Origin: Chiloscyllium plagiosum
Taxonomy: Eukaryota
NCBI RefSeq assembly: GCF_004010195.1
Contig: NC_057759.1
Span: forward strand, 1,869,069 to 1,933,068
Length of the DNA: 64,000 nt
Direction of reading: 5' to 3'
Both the position numbers and the translations under genes were made by a program. The stretch's first letter is position 1; each line of letters starts with the position of its first letter. The notes under the pieces were generated by a model. It was given only the letters and a program-made list of their open reading frames with translations, did no database searches and was not told the DNA's origin. Below are positions 5,986 through 64,000 of the stretch, piece after piece.

Positions 5986-8355
5986 GGAGAAAGTGAGGAC
6001 TGCAGATGCTGGAGATCAGAGCTGAAATGTGTTGCTGGAAAAGCGCAGGTCAGGCTGCATCCAAGGAACAGGAGAATCGACGTTTCGGGCATGAGCCCTT
6101 CTTCAGGAATGAGGAAAGTTTGCCAAGTGGGCTTAGATAAAAGGTAGGGAGGAGGGACTTGGGGGAGGGGCATTGGAAATGCGATAGATGGAAGGAGGTT
6201 AAGGTGAGGGTGATAGGCCGGAGTGGGGGTGGGGGCAGAGAGGTCAGGAAGAAGATTGCAGGTTAGGAAGGTGGTGCTGAGTTCGAGGTTTGGGATTGAC
6301 ACAAGGTGGGGGGAGGGGAAATGAGGAAACTGGAGAAGTCAGTTCATCCCTTGTGGTAGGAGGGTTCCTAGGCGGAAGATGAGCTGCACTTCCTCCAGCC
6401 ATCATGTTGCTATGGTCTGGAGTCGAAGGACCTGCATGTCTTTGGTGGAGTGGGAGGGGGAGTTGAAGTGTTGAGCCACAGGGTGGTTGGGTCGGTTGAT
6501 CCAGGTGTCCCAGAGGTGTTCTCTGAAACGTTCCGCAAGTAGACGGCCTGTCTCCCCAATATAGAGAAGGCCACATCGGATGCAGCAAATGATGTGTGTG
6601 GAGGTGCAGTTGAATTTGTGGCGGATATGGAAGGATCCCTTGGGGCCTTGGAAGGAAGTAAGGGGGGAGGTGTGGGTGCAATTCTTGCATTTCTTGAGGT
6701 TGCAGGGGAAGGTGCCGGGAGTGGAGGTTGGGTTGGTGGGGGCTGTGGACCTGACGAGGGAGTCACGGAGGGAGTGGTCTTTTCGGAACGCTGATAGGGG
6801 AGGGAAATATATATGCCTGGTGGTGGGGTCCGTTTGGAGGTGGCAGAAATGACGACAGATGCTACGATGTATATGGAGGTTGATGGGGTGGTCGGTGAGG
6901 ACCAGTGGGGTTCTGTCCTGGTGGTGATTGGAGGAGCGGGAAGTGGAGAAGATGTGGTGGAGAGCATCGCTGATCACGTCTGGCGGGAAATTGTGGTCTT
7001 TGAAGAAGGAGGCCATCTGGGTTGTACGGTATTGGAACTGGTCCTCCTGGGAGCAGATGCGGCGGAGACGAAGGAATTGGGAATATGGGATGGCGTTTTT
7101 ACAGGGGGCAGGGTGGGAGGAGGTGTAGTCTAGGTAGCTGTTGGAGTTGGTCGGTTTATAGTAAGTGTCCGTGTTGATTCGGTCGCCCGAGATAGAAATG
7201 GAGAGGTCTAGGAAGGGGAGGGAGGAGTCTGAGACGGTCCAGGTAAATTTGAGGTCGGGGTGGAAGGTGTTGGTAAAGTGGATGAACTGTTCATCCTCCT
7301 CGTGGGAGCACGAGGCAGCGCCGATACAGTCATCGATGTAGTAGAGGAAAAGGTGGGGGGTGGTGCCAGTGTAGCTGCGGAAGATGGACTGTCCCACATA
7401 TCCTATGAAGAGGCAGGTCATAGCTGGGGCCCATGCGGGTGCCCACGGCTACTCCTTTGGTTTGGAGGAAGTGGCAAGATTGGAAAGAGAAGTTGTTCAG
7501 AGTGAGGACCAGTTCAGTCAGTCGGAGGGTGTCAGTGGAAGGGTACTGGTTGGTACGGCGGGAAAGGAAGAAGCGGAAGGCTTTGAGTCCTTNNNNNNNN
7601 NNNNNNNNNNNNNNNNNNNNNNNNNNNNNNNNNNNNNNNNNNNNNNNNNNNNNNNNNNNNNNNNNNNNNNNNNNNNNNNNNNNNNNNNNNNNNNNNNNNN
7701 NNNNNNNNNNNNNNNNNNNNNNNNNNNNNNNNNNNNNNNNNNNNNNNNNNNNNNNNNNNNNNNNNNNNNNNNGGGGTTGTGGGACTATGAGGTTGGAGGC
7801 GGTGGATGGGAGATCCTCCGAGGTGATGAGGTTATGGATGGTCTGGGAGATGATAGTTTGGTGGTGGGAGGTGGGGTCATAGTCAAGGGGGCAGTAGGAG
7901 GAGGTGTCCGCGAGCTGGCATTTAGCCTCAGCGGTGTAAAGGTCGGTGCGCCAAACTACTACCGCGCATCCCTTGTCTGCCGGTTTGATAGTGAGGTTGG
8001 GGTTGGAACAGAGGGAGTGGAGGGCTGCACATTCTGAGGATGAGAGGTTGGAGAGGGGTGGAGAGGTTGAGGCGGTTAATGTCGCGGTGGCAGTTGGCTA
8101 TGAAGAGATCGAGGGCAAGTAAGAGGCCAGCCCGGGGTGTCCAGGTGGATGGGGTGTGTTGGAGGCGGGAGAAGGAGTCGTCAGAGGGTGGGTGAGAATC
8201 CTGGTTGAAGAAGTAGGCGCGGAGGCGAAGGCGGCGGAAGAATTGTTCGATGTCTCATTGTTGAACTCATTAATCCGAGAGCATAGGGGAATGAAGGTGA
8301 GGCCTCTGCCGAGGACTGAGTTCGAGAGGGATTGTGAAAACACGGCAGGGCTGGG
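5986..8355 (-). mobile_element. Penelope-like retroelement, Neptune clade (RT + GIY-YIG endonuclease), 5'-truncated
   Basis: ORF 6402-7421 contains YIDDC (RT), FLDL, YKPT, a CNLKKCKNC linker and CIRCGLLYIGETGR (GIY-YIG). 13-bp TSD TATAAGGCATTAA at 5973-5985 and 8356-8368. Empty site at 15926-15938. Confidence 0.95.
6072..6110 (-). ncRNA. Minimal hammerhead ribozyme motif in Penelope terminal repeat
   Basis: Reverse complement reads attc CTGAAGA a GGGC tcat GCCC GAAA C GTC gatt. Confidence 0.75.
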
Positions 8356-38800: not shown

Positions 38801-39439
38801 TTAATCTCATCGATATTGCTATTGGGTCTGGCAACGTCTTTGTTTTAATATTCTCAAGGACGTCATCACATCTGTCCATGAAATGCCCCTCAGTCTGCCT
38901 CTAGATTACACAAACCCCTTGTTAGTTGTTCATATTGAAACATACTTCCTGCATCAATGTTCTATCTCAAAGAATGATTTTCACATCTAACACTGCACAC
39001 ACAAGCACACACTTCTGTGCCTGGTTGTCGTGAAGTGGAGGTAGAAGAGCATAAATTACTGGAGACCCCACTTACTGTCAAAGCTATTTCGCAATTATTT
39101 TTGACCCTCGAATGGAGTTATGTCCTGTATTACTTATTGTCTTTTTAATTTAATAGGACAGCAAATGTACTGGCTTTCTTTTCTCAAGTAGCCTTGACCT
39201 TTCATTTTCGTATCCTTGGTTCAGTTTCATCTCCATCACCTTTGTAGGCAGGTTGTTCCAGGTCCTAGTCACCTAAATGACGTTTTCCTACATATCTGAC
39301 TACATAAGGATTTTCAGGTTTATGTCCTGGATAACATGTGATCAGCAGGCATCTGGCAATCTAGCAGAATTGCCACCTATGTTAAGTGTATTCAACTGTA
39401 CTGACAGTGATCAATCATTTTATGAATTTATTTTTGCAG

Positions 39440-40770
39440 GAAGACATGCAGAAAGAAATCTGAAAGCACATGATACATCAACTTGTGACAGAACCACTTG
39501 ATTCATTGGGACTTGAATATCAGCAGCTATTCAAATCGAGAGGAAATGTTTGCTTTTGTCTGCTTGACAGGTTTTGGACACTGGTATGGCAGGAAGAATA
39601 CGGAGACATCCGAGTGAGGGAGATTCAGTGCGCTGTCTGTGAAATGTGCTTCAAACCGTTTACTCAGCTTAGGGGATCAAACTGACACCACTCACTGTGG
39701 GGAGAAACTGTGTACACATTCTGTTTGTAATTTCAAACGCAGAGCGACACAAGGAAAGCGCCCCCAATGAGGAAACTGTGGAAATGTGGGGACTGTGGGA
39801 AAGGATTCCCGTCCCCATCAGTGCTGGAAACCCACAGACGCATTTACACTGGGGAGAGACCATTCACTTGCTCCGTGTGTGGGCAGGCATTCAGTCAGAT
39901 GGGTCATCTGCAGAAGCACCAGCGGGTCCACACAGGAGAGAAGCTGTTCACTTGCCCCATGTGTGGGAAGGCATTTGCTCAATCATCTGCACTACTGATC
40001 CATAACAGGGTCCACACCAGGGAGAGGCCATTCACCCGCTCTCAGTGCGGGAAGGGTTTGTGAATTCTTCCAACCTGCAGACTCACCAGCGGGTCCACAC
40101 CGGAGAGAGGCCATTCACGTGCTTGGTGTGTGGGAAAGGGTTCGCTTATTCATCTGCACTGCTGATCCACAAGCGGGTCCACACAGGGGAGAGGCCATTC
40201 ACCTACTCTCTGTGCGGGAAGGGATTCATTGATTCTTCCAGCCTATGGACCTACCAGCGGGTCCACACGGGAGAGAAACCGTTCATGTGCCAGTATGTGG
40301 GAGGGGGTTCACGGAGTCTCTAAACTCCTGATCCACCAGCGGGTCCACACTGGGGAGAAGCCTTCCATCTGCTCAGTGTGCAGGAAGAGATTCAGTCAGA
40401 TGGGACAGCTGCAGAGGCACCAGCTGGTTCACATGGGAGAAAAGCCGTTCACGTGCCCCTGTGCAGGAGGGGGTTCACAGAGTCATCTACAGTGCTGACC
40501 CACCAGCGGGTCCACACACAAGAGAAGCCTTTCACCTGCTCAGAGTGCGGAAAGGGATTCAGGCAGTTGGGTAACCTGCAGTCGCACCAGCAGGTCCACA
40601 CCAGGGATTGGCCATTCACTTGTCCCGAATGCAGGAAGGCATTCAGTCATGTCAGGAACTTGCAGACACACCAGTGAGTCCACACGGGAGAGAAGCCATT
40701 CACTTGCCCGAGTGCTGGAAGGGATTAATTGATGCCTGCGGATGAATGAGCAGGTCCACACTGGGGACAG
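39440..40770 (+). pseudogene. C2H2 (Kruppel-type) zinc-finger terminal exon, about 11-12 fingers, frameshifted
   Basis: Acceptor ttatttttgcAG at 39439. Repeated CxxC..F..L..H...H with TGEKPF linkers spread over several ORF frames, at least 3 frameshifts, a stop near 40675, and Cys/His losses. Confidence 0.9.
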
Positions 40771-41169
40771 CCCACTCACCGTCTGAGACCGTGGGTGGGT
40801 AGTGTATGCGCTTTGACCTTGAGCAGTTTATAAAAAAAGCTATATTTTGTACACCTTTTTACTGCGAAGATCTGAAGCAGTAGCAAAGCTAGGTCGCAAC
40901 AAAGGTTACTTGAACTTGCCATCGTACTCGGACCTTGAAATCTATGCAATCTAACAGGCTTTTGTTTCAAAGCTGCTCATCTTTCAGCCTCCAGCAATAA
41001 GTTTCTGCTGTCATGTATCAGAAGAAGCGGTGAATGAATAGTTAGTATCATCAGAAATTCTGATTTTTTTCAGGAGTGCAGGTATCCCATTGCTTCATTG
41101 GCATTGTAAGGTTTACTGGCAGCACCGGGGGAGGTGTGAGCTGTGATCACTGGAAATTATGCGGAAGAG

Positions 41170-49025: not shown

Positions 49026-49214
49026 CTTGCGGATCATTTCAGAGAATATCTCTGGGATACCCGCACCCAGCAACCCCATTGTCATGTGGCTGTACACTTT
49101 AACTCCCCTCCCACACATGTAGGTCCTGGGCCTCCTCTATCACTGAAATACCTTTTGTTTGAAAAACTAACAACGTTTGGTTCTTCCAGCAGTGCATCAT
49201 TTTCACCGAAGCAC

Positions 49215-49447
49215 AACCCACCCAGACCCATTCCCCTACATTTACCCCTTCACCTAACACTATAGGCAATTTACCATGGCCAATTCACCTAACGTGCACA
49301 TTTTTAGACTGTGGGAGGAAACCGGAGCACCCGGAGCAAACCCACGCAGACAATGGGAGAATGTGCAAACTCCACACAGACAGTCGCCTGAACCCAGGTC
49401 TCTGGCACTGTGAGGCAGCAGTGCTAATCACTGTGCCACCATGCCGC
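49215..49447 (-). mobile_element. HE1-like SINE
   Basis: ttagactgtgggaggaaaccggagcacccgg...gcagtgctaatcactgtgccacc. Confidence 0.8.
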
Positions 49448-49559
49448 CCAGAGAGACAGAGAGAGAGAGAAAGCAAGACAGGCACACAGAGACTTAATAC
49501 TAACTCTCTGCAGCTTGAAGAAAGTTTAACCCTTTGAGATTCACTTTAGATGCACATTT

Positions 49560-50420
49560 ATTTGTTGGTGAGTGAATGTTTGTGTTTTGTGTCTGTGTCC
49601 TGTCGTGACTGGGGTTGGTGCCCCTGTCGATCAGTAGTTCTGTGAACTCCAGATAAGATGAAAGACAAACATCCCCTAACGGAAATAATAAGTCTGTATC
49701 CTAATTATGAGAAACAATTAAGGGAAAAATCGGCTGCAGCTGCTCAACAAAATAAGGATTGCCTCGAGGAGGCACACATGATTTAACTCTACTCATTAAA
49801 ATTGAACAAGGGATTTGAGGAAAAAAGGGAAGTGAGCAGGAAGAAGCCATATGAGTGTGGAAAAAGGTAGTTTGGGAAAAATCAATGCAATCATCATGAA
49901 GACAAAACTGTATTAAAAAGGGAGTTAGTCCATTAACTGAGGAAGAGTCTGAATTAGATTGGACAGAACTAAAATGCAAATTCGAAGCATATGACTTAGA
50001 AGCAGAATTGGAATTGGCTAGCAAAAAAGGAAAGCAAAGATTTAGAACCTAAGCTGAAATGTCAGGAGCCCCAATGAAAAGGAAATAAGAATAAGAACAG
50101 GCTGCAGCCATGCAGGACCAGATGAATGACAGAGACTGTTCCTTATACCCCATCCTCCCCTCTCCCAAAGATACATAAAGAATCCTGATCCATCTGTGGA
50201 TAAGGAATGGGATTCTGATTTGGAGAAGGAAATATTTTATGTCTCTCCTCCCATCAGCCGACCTCCTCAAAAATCACCCACAGTACGGTCAAGGTGAACA
50301 AGCTTCATAAAAACAAAGTCACCTGAACCCCCCTCCCTACTCTGAGGACCAATCTGCTGAGACCCATGCCCTTCCCCCAACTAATCATTTGTCATAGTGT
50401 GTTAGGAGTGTTACAATTGC
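49560..50420 (+). mobile_element. gag: Endogenous retrovirus leader and gag 5' fragment (gamma/epsilon-like), degenerate
   Basis: Leader donor tggtgagt. (W)PRGGTHDL matrix-like motif (needs a 1-nt frameshift), LYPIL at 50143-50157 and PPPY at 50329-50340 (late-domain-like). Several stops. Confidence 0.6.
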
Positions 50421-51014
50421 ACAGATGAGTGAACTTAAGATCACTGATTTTGATCAATCTAACTGCTGCTTTTAAAATCAGTTTGTACTCTTTAACCAGA
50501 CAGTAAAAGAAAATNNNNNNNNNNNNNNNNNNNNNNNNNNNNNNNNNNNNNNNNNNNNNNNNNNNNNNNNNNNNNNNNNNNNNNNNNNNNNNNNNNNNNN
50601 NNNNNNNNNNNNNNNNNNNNNNNNNNNNNNNNNNNNNNNNNNNNNNNNNNNNNNNNNNNNNNNNNNNNNNNNNNNNNNNNNNNNNNNNNNNNNNNNNNNN
50701 NNNNNNNNNNNNNNNNNNNNNNNNNNNNNNNNNNNNNNNNNNNNNNNNNNNNNNNNNNNNNNNNNNNNNNNNNNNNNNNNNNNNNNNNNNNNNNNNNNNN
50801 NNNNNNNNNNNNNNNNNNNNNNNNNNNNNNNNNNNNNNNNNNNNNNNNNNNNNNNNNNNNNNNNNNNNNNNNNNNNNNNNNNNNNNNNNNNNNNNNNNNN
50901 NNNNNNNNNNNNNNNNNNNNNNNNNNNNNNNNNNNNNNNNNNNNNNNNNNNNNNNNNNNNNNNNNNNNNNNNNNNNNNNNNNNNNNNNNNNNNNNNNNNN
51001 NNNNNNNNNNNNNN

Positions 51015-52705: not shown

Positions 52706-54140
52706 CCAGGTGTTCTTCCTCCAGGCTTCAGGTGGTTATGTTAATGTACAGATTTGAGACAGCCCAGGGAATCCCTTGTGGACTTCGACCTGTAAAGCCT
52801 GTCTTTTGGTTCATCCTGGAGATCGTACTCTTTGGAAGTCTGGAATAAAAACTTCTTATGCACAGTTTAGTTTAATTTTAGTCATCCCCTTTATTCAATA
52901 ATAGCATCACTGTTACAACATAACACTGATACCTATAAGCTAAACTAACGAGTTCTAATAACCTAGGAGAGTGGGGTACCATCTCTTCAAGTGCCCCAGC
53001 AGGCTATTCCAATGTACTGTCACAAAGTGTCTGCTTTTATACAAAAGTTTACAAAAACATTGCAGTTCTTAATTAGACAGATAACAGTGCAAGACAATAA
53101 TTCGTAAGAAAGTAAAATTAATTGACAGATGTGTGTGTGCTTGACTGATCACTCCTACAGGCCTTGAACTATCCATCAGATAGGAAAAACATACCTAGCT
53201 GAGTTAAACATCTGCTCGTGAAATAAGTCCCTATAAAGAAGTACCAGTCTAAATTAAGTGGGAGATGTCATAAGGTAACCTTGTACAGCTCACATGTCTG
53301 ATATCATTGTTTTACAAAATGGCTTCTTAGCAAAGAAGGCAAATTTTTGACCATAAAATGGCTTCCTGACAGATTGTGTCAGAATCTCTTCAATGTTAGG
53401 TTTAGAATAATTTTAAGCTAGGAGCAGATTCCTGCTTTATATCTTAAGCACAGAATCATTCTGTACCTGAGGCTGAAATGTTACTGCAAGGTTGTATTTA
53501 AAATGAATAATTAGTCTCGAATTAACACTCTTTGCAAGATTGTGATTCAAATTCAAATAAGACATAAGATCTGACTAGTTAAAATTGATATTTGGGGCAG
53601 TCTGTAAGATCTGTAGAGTGGTGTGCAAGAACAGCAAGTTAGTTAAAGCTTCATTAATATTACCACTTGCAGAGTTTGTATTTAATAACTGGTAATGTCT
53701 ACTCAATAGCATCATAGAGACCCAAAATGCAGTTAAATTCAATCCATAGCAGATAAGCACTAAGTATTAATTTTCTACAGGCTCCAATAGCCTCAGCACT
53801 AAAATGGCCTCTCCCTCTCGTGTCCTTTTGAACTCTCAAGTCAGCAAAGATTTTTTTCTCTCTGTCTGCCCGCTTGCAAGGGTTAATAAGAATCCATTCT
53901 AATTGGCAGCATCCTGCCGTTAATTACAAATCTTTTGATAGTACCGAGTTCCGTTTCAGGGTCAGAATCAAACACTCTCATTAATTTCACAAGGGAACGG
54001 CTGTGAATGTTATCACTTGGTGTCCTGTTCACACAGATTCACCGATGCAAATGTTCTTAATTGCCTTACAGCATCCTGTTATCATTTGATGAGCCCAGAT
54101 GTTGCTATCTTCTGCATTCCTTGAGATCCCCCCCTTTTTC
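52706..54140 (-). mobile_element. Putative ERV 3' LTR / U3 region
   Basis: Lies downstream of env. Reverse-complement TATAAAAG at about 53035, AATAAA at about 52890, and a PPT-like aaaaaggggggg at about 54128-54139. Boundaries not defined. Confidence 0.4.
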
Positions 54141-54208
54141 TGAGCCTTCCTGCCTGTCTATTTTCTAGTGCAGTAAATGTGTTCTATAATTCAGCATTAT
54201 ATTTTAGT

Positions 54209-55421
54209 TCAAAGTTTGTGAGAAGATTTGTAGCTCGGATGCTCGTTGCTGTGGTTCGGTTCGTCGAGCTGGAAGTTTTTGTTGCAAATGTTTCGTCCCC
54301 TGTCTAGGTGACATCCTCAGTGCTTGGGAACCTCCTGTGAAGCGCTTCTGTGGTGTTTCCTCCGGCATTTATAGTGGTCTGTCCCTGCCGCTTCCGGTTG
54401 TCAGTTTCAGCTGTGCGCTGTCGTGGTCGGATCATCAACACACCGGATCATCAACTCCACACTCACAGGAATCCGATTCACTAGAGAGGAAGAAAAGGAC
54501 AACCAACTCCCATTCCTAGACGTGAGGGTACAGAGAACACCAAACGGAGAATTCACCACAAAGGTACACAGGAAAGCCACACACACAGACCAAGTCCTGA
54601 ACTATGAAAGCAACCACCCCAATACACACAAACAAAGTTGCATCAAGACACCATTCAAAAGGACCACAACACACTGCAGCACACCAGAACTGCAAAAACA
54701 GGAAGAGGAACACCTATACAAGGTATTCGCCAAAAACAGATATCCTCGCAATTTCATCAACAGATGCCTAAGGGAAAGACAACGGAACAAGGACATGCCG
54801 CAACCCAAAGGACGAGCCACACTACCATACATCAAGAACATCTCTGAAATGACAGCCAGACTACTGCGACCACTGGACTTATAACAGCACACAAACCAAC
54901 AGCCACACTCAGACAACAAGTCACCAGAACGAAGGACTCGATACCCAGTATGAGCAAAACTAATGTAGTGTACAAAATCCCATGCAAGGACTGCACAAAA
55001 CACTATATAGGACAAACAGGAAGACAGCTAACGATCCGCATCCACGAACATCAACTAGCCACGAAACGACACGACCAGCTATCCCTAGTTGCCACACACG
55101 CAGACGACAAGCAACATGAATTTGACTGGGACAACACTTCCATTATAGGACAAGCCAAACAAAGAACAGCCAGGGAATTCCTAGAAGCATGGCACTCATC
55201 CACAAACTCCATCAACAAACACATCGACTTGGACCCAATATACCGGCCACTACAGCGGACAGCTGAAACTGACAACTGGAAGCGGCAGGGACAGGCCACT
55301 ATAAATGCCGGAGGAAACACCATAGAAGCGCTTCACAGGAGGTTCCCAAGCACTAAGGATGTCACCTAGACAGGGGACAAAATGTTTGCAACAAAAACTT
55401 CCAGCTCGGCGAACAGAACCA
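54209..55421 (+). mobile_element. Penelope-like element, Poseidon clade, 5'-truncated, with inverted pseudo-LTR
   Basis: LPFLDV...HRKATHTD, TLPYI, NVVYKIPCKDC..YIGQTGR...REFLEAWHS. About 54248-54421 is an inverted copy of about 55252-55426. Duplication cagcattatattttagt at 54192-54208 and 55422-55438. Confidence 0.93.
54284..54323 (-). ncRNA. Hammerhead ribozyme motif in Poseidon pLTR
   Basis: Reverse complement gca CTGAGGA t GTCACCT agac AGGGGAC GAAAC ATT tgc. The plus-strand copy at about 55350-55390 is mutated in the core. Confidence 0.6.
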
Positions 55422-55574
55422 CAGCATTATATTTTAGTCTAAATGTTTAAAGACAGGCGTTAAGGCTATAGACTTTCTCATTCCCTTGTTTTGATATTTC
55501 ATGACAACTACTTGGCTTATACAAGAATACTTAGTCCATTCAGTCAGTTGGTATTCTTAATAAGTCAAGTGCCT

Positions 55575-57037
55575 CCTCTGGCGAGTCATCGTATGGCGGA
55601 GCAGAGCTGAAAAATACTGGATTTCAGCATGGAAGTTCAGACTTGGAGGTAGAGGGGGAGACATGGGTCAATTAATCAGATTCCTCTTTGGCTTAGGTGA
55701 AAAGCAATGTACGGTCCATTTCATGCATAAGTGGACGACAATGTATATTCCTAGGATGAGACCAAGGATTATCAGTACGTCCCACAGGATCCATCCGTAC
55801 AGCGACCATAGCCAGCAAGTAAAACTCCATCCACGTAAATTGGATGACTGTGGGGCAGGTACCTTCCCTGCGTCTTAACCTGTTTTGTTGATAACATCTG
55901 TATCATCCAAAATGTCTTTCAAGAAATCATCGATGGAGGTGCAACATTGCGGGCCAATGACTGAACAAATGTCTCCTCCTTTAGCAAGGGGGAAATCTAG
56001 CGCTAGTTGATTCTGAAGCATCATCATCTGAGTCTCTTGTAACTCTTTGTTCACCAGTTTCAAAGCATGGGCAGTCGAGTTAGCAGGTGTTTTGATATCC
56101 TGCGCAAGATCACTTATCTAATCTAGGGCCATCTCAATATCCCAGCCAGGAATAAGGCCTCCCAGCAACCTGGACCACCAGGTTTGTTGATGAAAGACAT
56201 TCTGTAAATCCCGTTTTGTTTTTCCTCTACTTGCTGTTTCATACTGATTCACCTGCTGGTGGGTGTTCCATTCATCATCTACTTCAGGCATCTCACGGTG
56301 GAGGGGGGGGGGTGAAAAGTGGTGAGGACATTAGAATGATGGAAAAGTGAGCAGATAACACATGGGTCAGGGGGCTTAGCTTGAATAAAGAAACCATTAG
56401 TAACAGGAGGAGGTTTGGGAGTGCATAGTATTTTTGGTCTTTCTTCATCTTTCCAGCTTGTCTTGTTAATTACTGTAGCTACTGAATACAGGAAACTTAT
56501 AAAGGTATTTCTGTCGGTGGCAGTAGGTTGGATAGGATAGGATTCCGTCAAGAAGGTATAAGTGATCAGTCTCATGGCAGTAGGTGCCTTAGGGTTTGGT
56601 GATTTGTGTACTATGTGCTCAATACTGCAATCTGTACGGTTCATTTTGAAAAGGGAACAGACGAGCATCTCAAGGTAGCAATTTTCAGTTGACAGAATGG
56701 ACGAGGTTATGGAATTGTGCCATCTCACAATGACTGGCATAGAAGTGTTGCAAGGATGACAATAAGGTCGAGAGTCATGTTTGGATATGCAATGTGAGTA
56801 GTTTAAATGAGTTTCAGCTGGGCAGCTGCATTCATAACTTCCAATGGTATTAGTACAGGTATCATACATACAGACACATTGGAGTTTTAGCTGGTCTGAG
56901 TTATCACAGAAGGGTTGGTTACATTTGTGCACATGTACTTGGGTTGGGCTTTCATCGAATGCCTGTATCAGTACTAACACTAGAACTGTGAGGGGGCTAC
57001 AAGCTTGCAATGGCCTTTGTAGACCCATGTTGAGCAT
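55575..57037 (-). pseudogene. env: Retroviral env (gamma-type TM) with N-terminal EGF-like motif, disrupted
   Basis: Hydrophobic [19 protein letters not shown], furin-like RGKTKR (56211-56228), ISD LQNQLALD, CSVIGPQCC (CX6CC, 55941-55967), anchor WDVLIILGLILGIYIVVHL. Frameshift in the poly-C run at about 56303-56312 and stops in TM. Confidence 0.9.
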
Positions 57038-57129
57038 CCTTCTACCTTTACTGCAGTTTCAGTTGTTAGAAGAACTTGATAAGGACTTTTCCAGGGGGTC
57101 CCAATTTTCCATAATTAAAGTCTTTCAAT

Positions 57130-58790
57130 AGTATGTAGTCACCAGGGTTAATGTCTTTACACATTGGAACTCTTTCTTCTTTCTTCCCTGATATCCGATA
57201 AGCTTATTTGACCTGTTGATGATAAGATTGCAGTGCTTTGGTTAGCTTAATCAGGTACCTGTGCATCTATTCTGCCATGAAAGCACATCAACAATGTGTT
57301 GGGCAGTTAATGGTGCAGACCAGGGAGTCCTCGGGGGCTTTCCATATATTAGTTCAGCCACCGAGAATCCTGTCTTTTTCTGTGTCATGGATCTCATATT
57401 AAAAAGGGTGATTGGAAGTACTTGCAGCCAATTTAAGGCCTGCTTCTTCTACCAATTTGCTTAGCTGACCTTTTAGGGTACCATTGGCTCTTTCTACAAT
57501 TCCCCCTGCTTTGGGATGGTTGGCACAATGGAATTTTTCATTCATATTCAAGCTCTTACATAGTTCCTTGTTTAGCTCCACACAGAAGTGGGGGCCATTA
57601 TCAGAAGAGACCGTTACTGGTATTCCAAATCTGGGTATGATTTCCCTTAACAGAATTTTACAAGTCGTTGTTGCTGTGCAGTCAGTACAGGGATAAGCTT
57701 CAATCCGTTACTAAATACATCGATTATCACTAAGCAATACTTATAACCATGACATCTAGGTAACTATAAAATCTAACTGGATAATATCAAAAGGTTCACT
57801 TAGCAAGGGAGTTTCATCTGGTGGATACTTTATTCCTTTCCCGGGATTATACTTTTGACGAATTAGGCAATTTGCAGTTGCTTGTTTTGCTTTTTCTTGC
57901 AGGTGGGAATTCCACCAAGTTTGGAGAATTCTGTCCACCTACATACACATGCGTATGAACATAATCAACTAGAATAGGCAAAAGTGAGTCGGGCAGATGT
58001 ATCTGTCTTACCAGCGTAACCCAAAACTTCTTATAACTACTTACATAACAACCATGGTTCATCTATTTTCGTCTTTCCTCATCAGAGGCGTCCCCCGATG
58101 GATCCGTATTTGCTCTCTTTCAGGCATGGTCAGGGTGTCAGAAGAGGAAATAGGAGATTCTCTCTTTGGTTTCCTATTCGTCATTTGAGTAACCATGTCT
58201 TTTTGCTCAAGAGCTGCTTTCTTAACAATTCTGCTGATGCAGCTGCTGCTTTTAATGACATCGGAAGTATCAGAAGAGTGAGCAGAATGTTTGATAATTG
58301 CCAATTGAGGGGGAAATTGAACAGCAATGAGGAGATTAGCATCACAGGCAACATTAAGGGTTGGGATTCCTGATGAGCTAAGGAAGCCGCGCTGTTGCCA
58401 ATGTTGAACAAAATTATAGCGCATCTAAAGGCGTAATGGGAATCAGTATAGATATTAGCTGACTTTCATTTAGCAAGTATACAGGCACAGGTGAGAGTAA
58501 GGAGTTCAGCTTGCTGGGCGGAACAGGATGGGTCAGCCGAGTAACCTTTTAGTGTCTGGGAAAAAGTGACAATCGCATATTCTGACATACGTTTGCCCTC
58601 TGGAGAGACAGAAAAAGAACCACCGACATAAAGTGTAAGGTCTGGGTTAACTAGAGCCTGATCGATAAGATCTGGATGTGGTTTAGTAACAAGTTAATTT
58701 ATGAGAACACAATCATGGGGAGGATCAGGCAGTTCAAGACATTCTTCCTGTAGGAATGTAACCGGGTTAATGTGAGAGCAGTATTTAAGG
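57130..58790 (-). pseudogene. pol: Retroviral pol 3' part (RNase H and integrase), epsilon/gamma-like
   Basis: INPVTFL..PHDC...LYVGGS, SAQQAEL, NIYTDSHYAF, WQQRGFL, PFDIIQLDFI, IIPRFGIP..VSSDNGPHF, HPKAGGIVERANGTLK. Confidence 0.93.
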
Positions 58791-58910
58791 AGAGAAGCAG
58801 ATTCTGAGTGGAGGACGTTTAGAGGTAAGCGAGGATATTGCAGAATGGGAGGTACAGACTTCTACATTTTGATGCAAAGTTATATTAGAGGCAGCCAATC
58901 CCACAGTATG

Positions 58911-61900
58911 GAACCATCCACTACTTTGTTGTTCAAAAATCAGATGAACTCAGCCTTGAATATATTCAATGGCCCCCTAACTGCAGGAAGACATCCCCAC
59001 TTCTGAACTCCATTCCTCAATATCACTTGCCAATCTCATTGCTTGCTGCACCTGTTTGACAACTGACATTGACTGGTGTAGAAGGACACAGAGGCGCCTT
59101 TGCACATCCACACGTCATTCCTGACGAAAGGCTCAAGCCCGATACATCATTTCTCCTGTCCTTAGATGTTGCCTGACCTACTGTGCTTTTCCAGCGCCAA
59201 ACTTTCTGACTCTAATCTCCAGCATCTGCAGTCCTCACTTTCTCCACATCCCAATATATCACCATTTAAACTATACACCTCTTTTCTGCTTTTTATTTTT
59301 GCAGCAAAGGCTATAACTTCATACTATGGTCCTGCATTTGTCATGTGTTTGCCAATTGAGACCCAGACCTGGATGACTTTTCCAGAGTCTGTCCCCTCCC
59401 TGAATTCACTCCCTTTCCTTTCAGTTCCTGCAAGTCAACAAATGAATCCCAGAATGAAACAAAGAAATGGAAAACAGGGTGAGAAAAGAGAGTGCTGTAC
59501 ACACAGATGTTGAACAGAGGAAGGAAGTTGCAGTCTGGGGTGAAACCCAATCTTCATTCAGAGAGAGGAGCAGCACCTTCCGAAGCTCATGGTCCAATGT
59601 CTGCATTCAGACAAAAGGAGGGTTGTGACTGGCAGGAGGACCACACTCATTCCGGTTGTCCAGGGCTCCTCATTGGTCCATTAAAAAATGTCGCAGGCCG
59701 TTTCTGCGGTGAGCGAGGAGCATGCGCATTATTTTGCTGACACCGGTGAACATTCACAGTGCTTGCTGACTCCAAGGAACATGCGCAGTATGCAGTGCAA
59801 AGATGCTAGTGTTACTGACAAATTTAAAGTGCCTAAATGCCAATTGTTTAAAAAAGGTTTGCAGTCACTATTTTCATTCCCTACTGTGGCTCGATATTTT
59901 ATTTTATTCTGTTTACATTTTGTCCGAGTGCTCAACCTTTGTCTGTGTTTTCCCCAGGGTAGCATACTGTCCAAATCTAATGGGGCATAGCTTTAGGGTG
60001 AGAGGGTGAAGATTTAAAAGGGACTTGAGGGGTAACCTTTTCATGCAAAGGGTGGTGTGTGAATTGAATGAGCTGCCCGAGAAACTGGTAGAAGCTGCTA
60101 CAATGATAACATTTAAGAGGCATCTGGATGGGTATATGAATGGGAAGAGGTGAGTGGGATATGGACCAAATGCTGGCAAATAGGTCACTATATTAATTTA
60201 GGATATCTTGTCAGTGTGGATCAAAAGGTTTGTTTCAACGCTCCATAAATCCATGGCTCGATTTCTACATAGTCGGGACCAATTGCACAAGACTTGGAAT
60301 AGACCATCCACCCCTTCCAGCCTGTCCTTAGCTGTGGCCTAACTGTGCATATTTCAAGCAATTTTGTCAAAGAATTCTTAAGCTTTTTTTTAAAAAAAGA
60401 ACATGCTTTCAGACTTTTATGATGTTTCTAAAGATATAATTTTAGCTATTCTCAATTTTAAAGGCCAGCCATTTCTCATGCACTCACATCTCCCAGATAG
60501 AGTCATCACCATCCATTCTCCCTGTGTTCTTGAAGGGCTTGATTCAGTGATCAAAGAGGACTTGAGGCATGAGAAAGGATGGGAGTGGGAAGGGAGAGAG
60601 AGACTAGATGGGGGGCGCAGAGGGTGTGGGGAGACAGAGAAAATGGACAGAGGGATAGAGGGTCGGGCTGAAGAGAGACTGGGGACAACAGGGTGGGGGA
60701 AAGAGAAGGGATGGTGGTGCGTACGAGAATGGGGGAGAGAGAAAGACAGAACGGCAACAGAGGGTTTGGAGTGAGACAGAGTGGGGGGGTATGAGTGTGG
60801 GAGAGAGAGAATGGGTGGGAGGGTAGGTGGGAGTGGAGAGAATGGACAGGGGGACAGAGGGTGGAGGGAGAGACAGCACAAATCCCATCTTCGCCAGGAC
60901 TGATGTCAAGTGTCCTACGAATTGGAACCCATTCCTCCACAACAAACGAACTTCTGAACAGCACCAAACATAGACCCACCCCACTTACCCTACAGCCCTG
61001 CAGTTCCCCATTGCTAATACACCAAAACCTGCACATGTCTGGACACTTTAGCATGGCCAATCCACCCTGAACTGCAAATTTTTGAACTGTGGGAAGAAAC
61101 CTGAGCATCCAGAGGTAACTCACACAGACACAAGGTGGAGAACGTGCCATAGTCCACAGACAGTCCCCTGAGGGTGGAATCGAACCTGGGTCCCTGGGGT
61201 CATGAGGCAGTGGTACTAACCGCTGAGCCATGCCACCCAGAGCTTTGAGGTTCTGCTTTGTCTTTGTAGCTTCTAACTTCTCGTGAGCCTACAGCAGAGG
61301 ATCTCTCCTCCCGACATTGTTGAATCATACCCGCTGCAACCTCCCTTTCCCACTTCTGTTCCTGAATCGTCCTGCCAGACAGACACTGATGCCATCTGGC
61401 CTCCTGCTGCCAGTTGCAGAGAACGGAGACAATGCCTGTCACTATTCTGTCCATTACCACCACCTCCCACTCCCCAGCGTTGTCATTACTGTCACCAACC
61501 ACCACCCAGCCAGTTCATTCCTCCAGCCAGCAGCCCTCTCTCAGATCTCCTTTACCTGTCTGACTCGCACTCGCACTCTCCTGACCCTGTCCACTGACCC
61601 AATTGGAAGACTATCTGGAGGGGAAGACCATTTCCAGGAATAAAGTGTCCGGTTAACTTTACCCATTTCCTCCAACATGTCTGGAGCCTGGCTTCTAGCT
61701 CTATCTCTCTGAGCCGAAGGTCCTCCAACATGCGTTTGCCCTGGAAAACAGCATCCAGATCCTCCCAGCAAATTGAAAGACAAGTCCCACCCAACCTTCT
61801 CCAATGTGTGTTTTGTAACTGCTTAATTATTTCTCGTGAATGAGCAGAGACTGATAGCCAAGTTCGGTATTCATGAGGATAGCCTCAACTGGGACCTTGG

Positions 61901-64000
61901 GTTTACATCCACTGTACTGTACACTCTCACATAAGCACATATACACACACTCATGCAGACACTCTTTCTCATACACTTGCTCTCTCCCAGAAACACAGAC
62001 ATACTCTCCCCACACACACACCCTCTCAAAGGCTTTTTCTCCATCACACATTTTACCAAGCATGCACGCACACTCACGTGCACACACACATGTGCACACG
62101 CAAACAGTCTCTGATGGACGCACAAACACATACAAGTCTTTCGGGTGAATTTTCATTTGTGAAATTACTTTTGCAGATACATTCTATTGTGCACTTTTTG
62201 AGCAAAATCTGCAGGCAGTCAGTCCATATAATATTTTATAAATTCCTACTTTGGAAATTAGAACCAGTCTCACTCAAGATTGGGATATAGACAGACTCTA
62301 ACCTCAACTTTCATGCATTTTCTGAGCTGAGATGTTAACTTCCGGTTTTAAAAAATGAGGTATGTCAAGAATATTACTTGAAGGAAGCTCTGGGATTAAT
62401 ATATTAAATGAACCAAAACCTGCAACTCATTCTAAAAGATGAAAGACTTACCATATAATGAACAAACCTAGAATACTGTTATCAGTTGCATGACACTAAT
62501 CTTTTGCTATAAATTCTGCTTCTCGTGATCCTGCTCCATAGCTACCCGATGAAGGAGCAGTGATCCAAGAGATGGTGCTTCCAAATAAACCTGTTGGACT
62601 ATAACCTGGTGTTGTGTGATTTTTAACTTTGTACACCCCAGTCCAACATTATGTGTCCACATAATTTCCAGTGAACACAGCTCACACCTCCCCCGGTGCT
62701 GCTAGTAAACTTTACAATGACAATAAAGCAATGGAGTATGCACTCCTGAAAAAAATTACAATTTCTGATGATACTAACTACTCATTCACTGCTTCTTCTG
62801 ATACATGACAGCAGAAACTTAGTGCTGGAGGCTGAAAGAAACGAGCAGCTTTGAAACAAAAGCCTGCAAGATTGCATAGATTTCAAGGTCCGAGTACGAC
62901 GGAAAGTTCAAGTAACCTTTATTGCGACCCAGCTTTGTCACTGCTTCAGATCTCCCCAACAAAAAGGTGTGCAAAATGTAGCTGTTTTTTTAAAAATGGC
63001 TCAAGATCAAAGCGCACACACTACCCACCCACCATCTGAGATGGTGAGCGGGCTGTCCCCAGTGTGGACCCGCTTGTTCATCCGCGGGCCGGAGGAATCG
63101 ATTAATCCCTTCCCGTGCTCGGGCAGGTGAATGGCTTCTCTCCCGTGTGGACCCACTGGTGTGTCCGCAAGTTACTAACATGACTGAATGCCTTCCTGCA
63201 TTCGGGACAAGTGAATGGCCGCTCCCCGGTGTGGACCCGCTGATGCATCTGCAGGTCACCCAACTGACTGAATCCCTTCCCGCACTCTGAGCAGGTGAAA
63301 GGCTTCTCTTGTGTGTGGACCCGCTGGTGGGTCAGCAGTGTAGATGACTCAGTGAACCTCCCTCCCGCACACGGGGCACGTCAATGGCTTTTCTCCCACG
63401 TGAACCCGCTGGTGCCTTTGCAGATGTCCCATCTGACTGAATCTCTTCCTGCACACTGAGCAGATGGAAGGCTTCTCCCCGGTGCGGACCTGCTGGTGGA
63501 TCAGGAGTTTAGATGACTCAGTGAACCCCTTCCCACATACTGGGCACATGAACGGCTTCTCTCCCGTGTGGATCCACTGGTGTGTCTGCAGATGGCCCAC
63601 ACTCTGAGCAGGTGAATGGCCTCTCCCCAGTGTGGATCCGCTAGTGGATCAGCAGTGCAGATGAATAAGCGAACCCTTTCCCACGAACCAAGCACGTATA
63701 TGGCCTCTCTCCGGTGTGGACCTGCTGGTGAGTCCGCAGTTTGGAAGAATTCACAAAACCCTTCCCGCACTGAGAGCGGGTGAATGGCCTCTCCCTGGTG
63801 TGGACACTTATGGATCAGTAGTGCAGATGATTGAGCAAATGCCTTCCCACACATGGGGCAAGTGAACAGCATCTCTCCTGTGTGGACCCACTGGTGCTTC
63901 TGCAGATGACCCATCTGACTGAATGCCCGCCCACACACAGAGCAAGTGAAGTTCTCTCCTCAGTGTGAATGTGTCTGTGGGTTTCCTGCACTGATGGGGA
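58911..64000 (-). repeat. Right arm of inverted segmental duplication 2 (continues past the window end)
   Basis: Reverse-complement collinear with 39812-44673. Confidence 0.95.
63050..64000 (-). pseudogene. C2H2 zinc-finger array, paralog of 39440-40770, frameshifted, partial
   Basis: [41 protein letters not shown] and similar fingers split across frames. Confidence 0.9.

Follow-up and report, generated by a model that had tools for sequence, protein, structure and literature searches.

An EGF-type motif in the env gene of a broken provirus

The window, a stretch of 64,000 nucleotides from Chiloscyllium plagiosum, contains a degraded provirus on the reverse strand, the parts of which are listed in Table 1. 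Its env ORF (57037-56279) begins where the integrase remnant ends and carries, as a reading of the sequence alone had pointed out, an EGF-type cysteine motif. The pattern, C-x-N-x4-Y-x-C-x-C at 56857-56822, is the sole match in the six frames of the window and was present in 91 of 200,000 residue shuffles of the env ORF. The best PDB sequence matches of this copy were to fibrillin-1 (E ~0.001).

The sequence-only reading had described the module as a calcium-binding EGF (cbEGF) domain. The Asx-hydroxylation motif agrees with this description, but the window copy consists of the C-terminal half of a cbEGF fused to an upstream cysteine module, rather than a whole cbEGF. The N-terminal acidic calcium ligands were removed by a 543-nt deletion, so that the term "calcium-binding" does not apply to this copy. 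In the EGF_CA profile search that had been proposed as a check, the window copy scored 16.6 bits, below the Pfam cut-off of 27, while the EGF_3 profile passed its own cut-off in two of seven longer sister copies.

Downstream stops, frame breaks, and a second deletion near 56328/56305 have disrupted the env gene of the window. A syncytin-like co-option would appear as an intact, conserved ORF at a single locus; here, the window copy is broken, as is now every provirus copy examined, and the longest env-region frame among loci L031-L045 measures 380 aa.

Table 1. Annotated parts of the provirus and its surroundings (positions in the window).
Feature	Position	Strand	Basis or remark
env 5' ORF (signal peptide and most of SU), short-form provirus	56279..57037	-	252 aa from ATG
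Signal peptide hydrophobic core	56960..56992	-	sequence; hydropathy peak, same place in long copy L032
Hybrid six-Cys EGF-like module: 2 Cys of the N-terminal module and the C-terminal 4 Cys of a cbEGF	56789..56878	-	
Asx-hydroxylation-type motif	56822..56857	-	pattern and shuffle test
543-nt in-frame deletion junction (compared with long-form copies)	56865..56868	-	
~140-aa Cys-containing domain with Pro-rich C-terminal end; common to both forms	56363..56788	-	
SU CXXC motif	56351..56362	-	
Second deletion junction (~440 nt, C-terminal part of SU), in the duplicates of this insertion	56305..56328	-	
Basic SU/TM cleavage-site-like motif	56211..56228	-	sequence
Fusion-peptide-like stretch	56142..56180	-	sequence and position; label inferred
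TM ISD-like stretch and CX6CC	55941..56018	-	
Membrane-spanning segment	55734..55793	-	
Degraded pol remnant (RNase H and integrase)	56970..58912	-	rve E 2e-6
3' untranslated/LTR region; end at 52739, start not fixed; insertion at ~54217-55426	52739..55420	-	
Fragment like the 5' part of sister proviruses, opposite strand (rearranged)	49206..50514	+	matches L036, L038, L040, L044

The region around the provirus looks segmentally duplicated, insertion included, and arrays of C2H2 zinc fingers lie on both sides of it (63000-64000 and 39300-40800). Beyond the 3' LTR, the fragment at 49206-50514 lies on the opposite strand, which suggests a local rearrangement. The 3' LTR region is itself broken by an element at 54217-55426 that is unrelated to the provirus and had no Pfam match at 0.001. 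This element resembles a Penelope-type retroelement.

Sister copies reveal a longer Env with tandem EGF domains

A search of the host assembly (3.56 Gb) with the window ORF gave at least 150 matches (150 of 323 candidates were scored). For comparison, 45 loci were taken, with five places represented twice. Many of the genome matches were split by ~500 nt, which revealed a long form of the gene. A search for the EGF pair of this form gave 30 matches from 53 candidates, distributed over 24 places; the strict motif of the window recurred in 10 of the top 30 sister loci. Comparison with these sister proviruses showed that the motif did not arise from a chance arrangement of cysteines and is not an insertion peculiar to this copy. 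The module belongs to the virus lineage, as had been supposed, with a host-type EGF inside SU at many independent proviruses. The search for proviruses of the same layout likewise yielded many copies, but in two env forms, and the window holds only a remnant of the full arrangement.

The long Env consists of a signal peptide, a cysteine module, a threonine-rich stalk, an EGF_3 domain, a cbEGF-type domain, a domain of ~140 aa, a proline-rich stretch, the CXXC core, and a gamma-type TM, in that order; after the cbEGF-type domain, it continues with the remainder of SU as found in the window. Proviruses with this architecture entered the germ line many times. The stalk measures 71 aa, 41% of which are serine or threonine, and 11 N-glycosylation sequons occur in the 357-aa stop-to-stop frame of one copy (L032).

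Among seven long ORFs, the Pfam EGF_3 profile (PF12947; cut-off 28.5 bits) scored 34.9 and 35.0 bits in two and 21.7-26.9 in four, with one giving no match, and each of the six EGF_3 cysteines was kept in 5-7 of 7-8 copies. The EGF_CA profile scored 14.4-21.9 bits in five long ORFs and found no match in the other two; it exceeded its cut-off of 27 in no copy scanned, whether the window or the long ORFs. The acidic motif [DN]-x-[DN]-[EQ]-C was found in five of eight long copies, as was C-x-[DN]-x4-[YF], with four carrying both calcium motifs, by which the cbEGF-type domain of the long form is classed as putatively calcium-binding. In two of three pieces, the N-terminal cysteine module matched a stabilin-type EGF (17.3 and 16.3 bits, cut-off 27). 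With this weak match in two sister copies, there may be three EGF-like modules in the long form (L032:6441-6680).

The ~140-aa domain that follows the EGF pair contains cysteines. It had no usable match in the ESM Atlas, PDB, or Pfam, and none among 1.84 billion representatives. An assignment as ZP-N was rejected, as 86-250 of 250 shuffles did as well or better when a profile was compared with host ZP-N exons. A single-sequence structure model of the long SU reached a pLDDT of 34.

A class I retrovirus with an appendage at the N-terminus of SU

Upstream of env, sister loci encode a protease, RT, RNase H, and an integrase with an MLV-type C-terminal domain (MLVIN_C, 42 bits), and downstream a TLV_coat domain is found (29.1 bits in L041, cut-off 22.5). 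The RT scored 72 bits to p80 RT/RNase H chains versus 60 to the next group, which we take to be MLV/XMRV and foamy virus chains, respectively, and the integrase core matched a foamy integrase best. A PBS-like stretch after the 5' LTR matches the 3' end of a host tRNA-Ser. Judged by its sequence, the family is a class I (gamma/epsilon-like) ERV, in its RT, its integrase C-terminal domain, and its LTR-PBS-pol-env-LTR order.

In Env, the gamma-type CXXC of SU is present in the window (56362-56351) and in L036, and CX6CC in the window, L036, L040, and L041. The basic cleavage-like site is seen in the window; the pieces of L032, L036, L037, L040, and L044 had no match there. The C-terminal part of SU could be aligned to conventional envs of this genome at ~25-35%, and the CXXC region resembled one conventional env no more closely than chance would allow (608 of 2000 shuffles). 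Against the PDB, TM matched GP2 chains best (57 and 55 bits), with syncytin-1 at 35 and MLV p15 at 25. Homology between GP2 and gamma-type TM is already known. For the TM ectodomain (L041:7469-7768; window ~55875-56117), the GP2 chains included that of Ravn virus, and no fish ERV TM was among the matches listed.

As controls, we used six loci with TM identity near 40-45%, five of which gave env frames. None of these five frames, all from other ERV families of the same genome, contained an EGF match. In three of the control envs, CWVC follows the first methionine after ~40 aa, whereas the CXXC of the window lies at residue 226; everything before the CXXC is therefore an N-terminal appendage. 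By analogy, it is placed like the receptor-binding domain and proline-rich region of MLV (PMC9967133; literature is cited here from the available passages). The other class I-like ERV families of this genome (L060-L064) have plain envs of ~450 aa, one of them an open frame of 469 aa.

The EGF domains are of a host type

One natural copy of the long Env, searched against 1.84 billion representatives, gave 27 matches, all within the EGF part. Fifteen of 16 scanned matches were EGF-repeat proteins, including EGF-rich adhesion GPCRs and several from amphioxus. The best were generic EGF repeats at 30-47% identity, the highest pairwise identities being 41-48%, and the best ESM Atlas cluster was annotated EGF_3/EGF_CA at 0.90. 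Aligned with cellular EGF pairs, the long copies share nine invariant cysteines across two domains. An AlphaFold model of the EGF pair reached a pLDDT of 71, with an alignment of eight EGF-repeat proteins that biases it towards an EGF fold; Foldseek with this model returned uromodulin, NELL1, and Notch1 as best matches, the top uromodulin match at 33% identity (E 9e-5). Cellular pairs of EGF_3 and cbEGF domains (uromodulin, NELL, Notch, EMR2/CD97, fibrillin, EGF-rich adhesion GPCRs) resemble the viral pair in how their cysteines are spaced, in the linker motif, and in predicted fold. The loops of the viral pair are longer, however, and no single protein stands out as its donor.

The sequence-only reading had proposed capture of an intronless host EGF. 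An intron-free EGF of a host type is indeed present in SU, but the donor gene was not found: 14 host stretches reached at most ~42% identity, EGF repeats of the host genome scored no better than amphioxus or metagenomic ones, and a protein search of the host genome for the donor gave provirus-like places only. Two DNA patterns identified one and six other places in the host genome, none of them a donor. The EGF_3 family search of the genome scored 150 of 1312 candidates. Candidate donors would presumably include SUSD1, ADGRL4, a uromodulin-like gene, cubilin, and HEG1. Tandem cbEGF repeats, many and intron-free, lie at C9:28.62-28.63 Mb (L048 and L049, with open frames of 734 and 899 aa), and about a hundred similar single-EGF exons form one 320-kb array at C19:5.67-5.99 Mb.

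Protein homologue searches found no relatives of the env (171, 317, and 857 candidates), which is weak evidence as only longer proteins were covered. IMG/VR contained no relative, and BFVD no match at E <= 0.001.

A 543-nt difference separates two env lineages

Compared with a long copy, 31 of the 32 short loci with both anchors miss exactly 543 nt (181 codons), and one misses 544; the other 13 of the 45 loci comprise 11 long copies and two without an anchor. The deletion joins two similar C-x4-C-x-N motifs and takes out 12 cysteines, with the rest of the N-terminal module, the stalk, the EGF_3 domain, and the N-terminal half of the cbEGF with its acidic ligands. What is left is a six-cysteine hybrid, in frame.

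A tree of 40 loci was calculated from the columns outside the deleted segment. It unites the 32 short copies in one clade with 100% ultrafast bootstrap and a stem of 0.071. The two groups are both star-like, with similar depth (tips ~0.06-0.11), and the tree, being unrooted and without an outgroup, gives no direction. The short copies are spread over 18 chromosome-scale contigs; this sister lineage, too, colonized the germ line repeatedly. A 100% subclade comprises the window copy and about seven more, located on contig C50 or on unplaced contigs, and is without the ~440-nt SU segment. With the 3' flank of one of these copies (L036) 91% identical to that of the window, they look like segmental duplicates of one insertion. 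A joint matching this second deletion also occurs in a contig of another organism (organism C).

The LTR pair of L034 is ~90% identical. When words were sampled from a long env, 21-32% of them occurred in sequencing runs of two other organisms. Contigs from one study per organism cover long-only sequence, those of organism B at L032 6416-6821 (19 differences in 403) and 6990-7118 (5 in 129), and those of organism C at 6561-6811 (6 in 248), with no listed piece covering the whole long-only stretch. With long-only sequence in both organisms, the family is probably older than the split of these species. Words of the long env were found in no RNA run among those listed; the three partial reads that turned up in one RNA run, of which 2% was covered, are uninformative on expression.

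Purifying selection on Env during the divergence of the two forms

Net divergence was calculated from 8 long versus 23 short copies, with each presumed insertion represented once (NG86; codons containing gaps or stops excluded, CpG effects outside the model). The dN/dS comparison across copies that the earlier reading had put forward gave 0.11 for the retained EGF half (26 codons; 95% interval 0.00-0.60). The N-terminus gave 0.37 (0.13-1.12) and the first 86 codons of the post-EGF domain likewise 0.37 (0.16-0.91), with 0.10 for the TM ectodomain, 0.21 for the anchor and tail, and 0.13 for the integrase. Env, including the retained half-EGF, was thus constrained while the two forms diverged, and the values for the EGF half and TM indicate that the module belonged to a replicating virus. 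The parts found only in the long form can be measured solely within the long group, which is star-like and dominated by decay; the ratios there were 0.83 for EGF_3 (0.41-1.87), 0.41 for the N-terminal half of the cbEGF (0.22-0.78), and 0.69 for the stalk.

Origin and role of the EGF cassette

These data describe a variant of the gamma-type Env that, as read from its sequence, contains host-type EGF and mucin-like modules, and of which the window copy would be a trimmed and broken descendant. In the account we favor, to which we give a probability of about 70%, an ancient class I retrovirus with a gamma-type Env gained host-type extracellular modules in frame between signal peptide and SU CXXC core, the position that the receptor-binding domain occupies in MLV (PMC9967133). 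The modules were likely captured from a spliced cellular mRNA. The long form very likely came first, as suggested by the completeness of its domains, and would have lost the segment through template switching between the similar C-x4-C-x-N motifs. The reverse order, in which the short form is ancestral and a second capture recombined into the existing half-EGF, agrees with the unrooted tree and the similar depth of its two star-like groups, but we consider it improbable. The insert would have had to bring the N-terminal half of the cbEGF and the rest of the upstream cysteine module, in frame, and similar motifs at both ends are what a deletion is expected to leave.

Since the lineage that lacks both stalk and EGF pair became no less widespread, the pair probably served as an accessory arm for attachment, or as a spacer or shield. 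A fuller version of this role, for which we see about even chances, has a glycosylated stalk and a calcium-stiffened EGF pair acting as attachment aid, spacer, or glycan shield, in the manner of the filovirus mucin-like domain, with entry through the retained hybrid module and the ~140-aa domain. The main rival to this role is that the EGF module was the true receptor-binding domain, a mimic of a host EGF-type ligand, with the hybrid preserving or altering that binding in the short form. The module lies N-terminal to the proline-rich stretch and CXXC, as in the layout of MLV (PMC9967133), all six cysteines are kept in the hybrid, and the EGF pairs matched by Foldseek are binding modules (CD97-CD55, Notch-ligand, NELL-Robo3). 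The retained half is also the most constrained part of SU (0.11 against 0.37), yet this value comes from 26 codons, and its interval overlaps the rest of SU. That a successful lineage did without most of the cassette speaks against the EGF pair as an obligatory receptor-binding domain: without EGF_3 and calcium ligands, the short form still reached 18 large contigs. We therefore regard this rival as unlikely. We hold a bolder scenario only tentatively: the receptor-facing end would have been built from a captured surface-protein cassette, possibly three EGF-like modules and a mucin stalk, served as a ligand mimic for attachment, and later been reshuffled by EGF-module recombination into the compact hybrid. 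If true, the genome would contain a fossil record of a retroviral receptor-binding domain arising from a host gene.

The modules could also be a passenger, with no role in Env, in a defective, helper-dependent virus, as v-sis is in the env of simian sarcoma virus; host sequence in env thus has precedent (PMC13297096), and the copies examined are all broken today. This is hard to reconcile with a segment in frame with signal peptide and core, a deletion that is an exact multiple of three, and purifying selection on TM, SU, and integrase between the forms (0.10 for TM), and we consider it highly improbable. Lastly, the cysteine pattern could have arisen by chance or convergence in a cysteine-rich SU. 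The window copy alone, below the Pfam cut-off, would permit this, but the EGF_3 matches above cut-off in long copies and the EGF-repeat matches among the 1.84 billion representatives, with their pairwise identities, refute it, leaving it a negligible probability. The nine invariant cysteines shared with cellular EGF pairs and the EGF_3/EGF_CA annotation of the best ESM Atlas cluster also speak against it.

Relation to known systems

The proviral Env shares with other gamma-type Envs, including those of MLV, the syncytins, and class I ERVs of fish and frogs, the signal peptide, SU CXXC, ISD, CX6CC, and anchor, as well as, in the window copy, a basic cleavage-site-like motif, and with MLV the N-terminal appendage followed by a proline-rich stretch (PMC9967133, PMC8278194). 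It differs in that this appendage is made of a mucin-like stalk and tandem EGF domains; the main text of a review on gamma-type Env contains neither "EGF" nor "mucin" (PMC9967133). A natural retroviral Env with EGF domains was not found in the literature searched, mostly abstracts and with few subscription journals; a prior mention is possible. "EGF" is absent from the main text of 10.64898/2026.05.06.723177, PMC8672886, PMC13297096, PMC9967133, 10.1101/2021.11.05.467493, PMC10536682, and PMC10435555, and its matches in the passages of PMC8278194 are to eGFP.

Retroviral vectors have been engineered with EGF at the N-terminus of SU (PMC3182074). In these man-made constructs, the EGF is a ligand of EGFR and blocks entry unless cleaved, whereas the domains described here are natural and of the EGF_3 and cbEGF types. 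Poxviruses, too, encode host-type EGF modules (PMC10963461), but these are homologues of growth factors, bind the EGF receptor, and occur in a DNA virus, outside a fusion protein. In v-sis, intron-free host sequence likewise lies inside env; there it destroys the Env protein and makes a helper virus necessary (PMC13297096). Here, the cellular modules sit in frame in a working Env, the core of which was under purifying selection. They occupy the position of the receptor-binding domain, and two stages survive in the genome: the complete cassette and the trimmed hybrid. The idea that SU appendages derive from host surface proteins, which bears on how the varied N-terminal domains of gamma-type SU arose, thereby becomes testable by comparative genomics.

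Filovirus GP and reptarenavirus GP2 contain homologues of the gamma-type TM. The mucin-like domain of filovirus GP1, which is cleaved before receptor binding (10.1101/2021.11.05.467493), lies C-terminal to the core and has no EGF, while the stalk described here is N-terminal and belongs to a provirus with RT, RNase H, and integrase, and would form a retroviral parallel to that domain.
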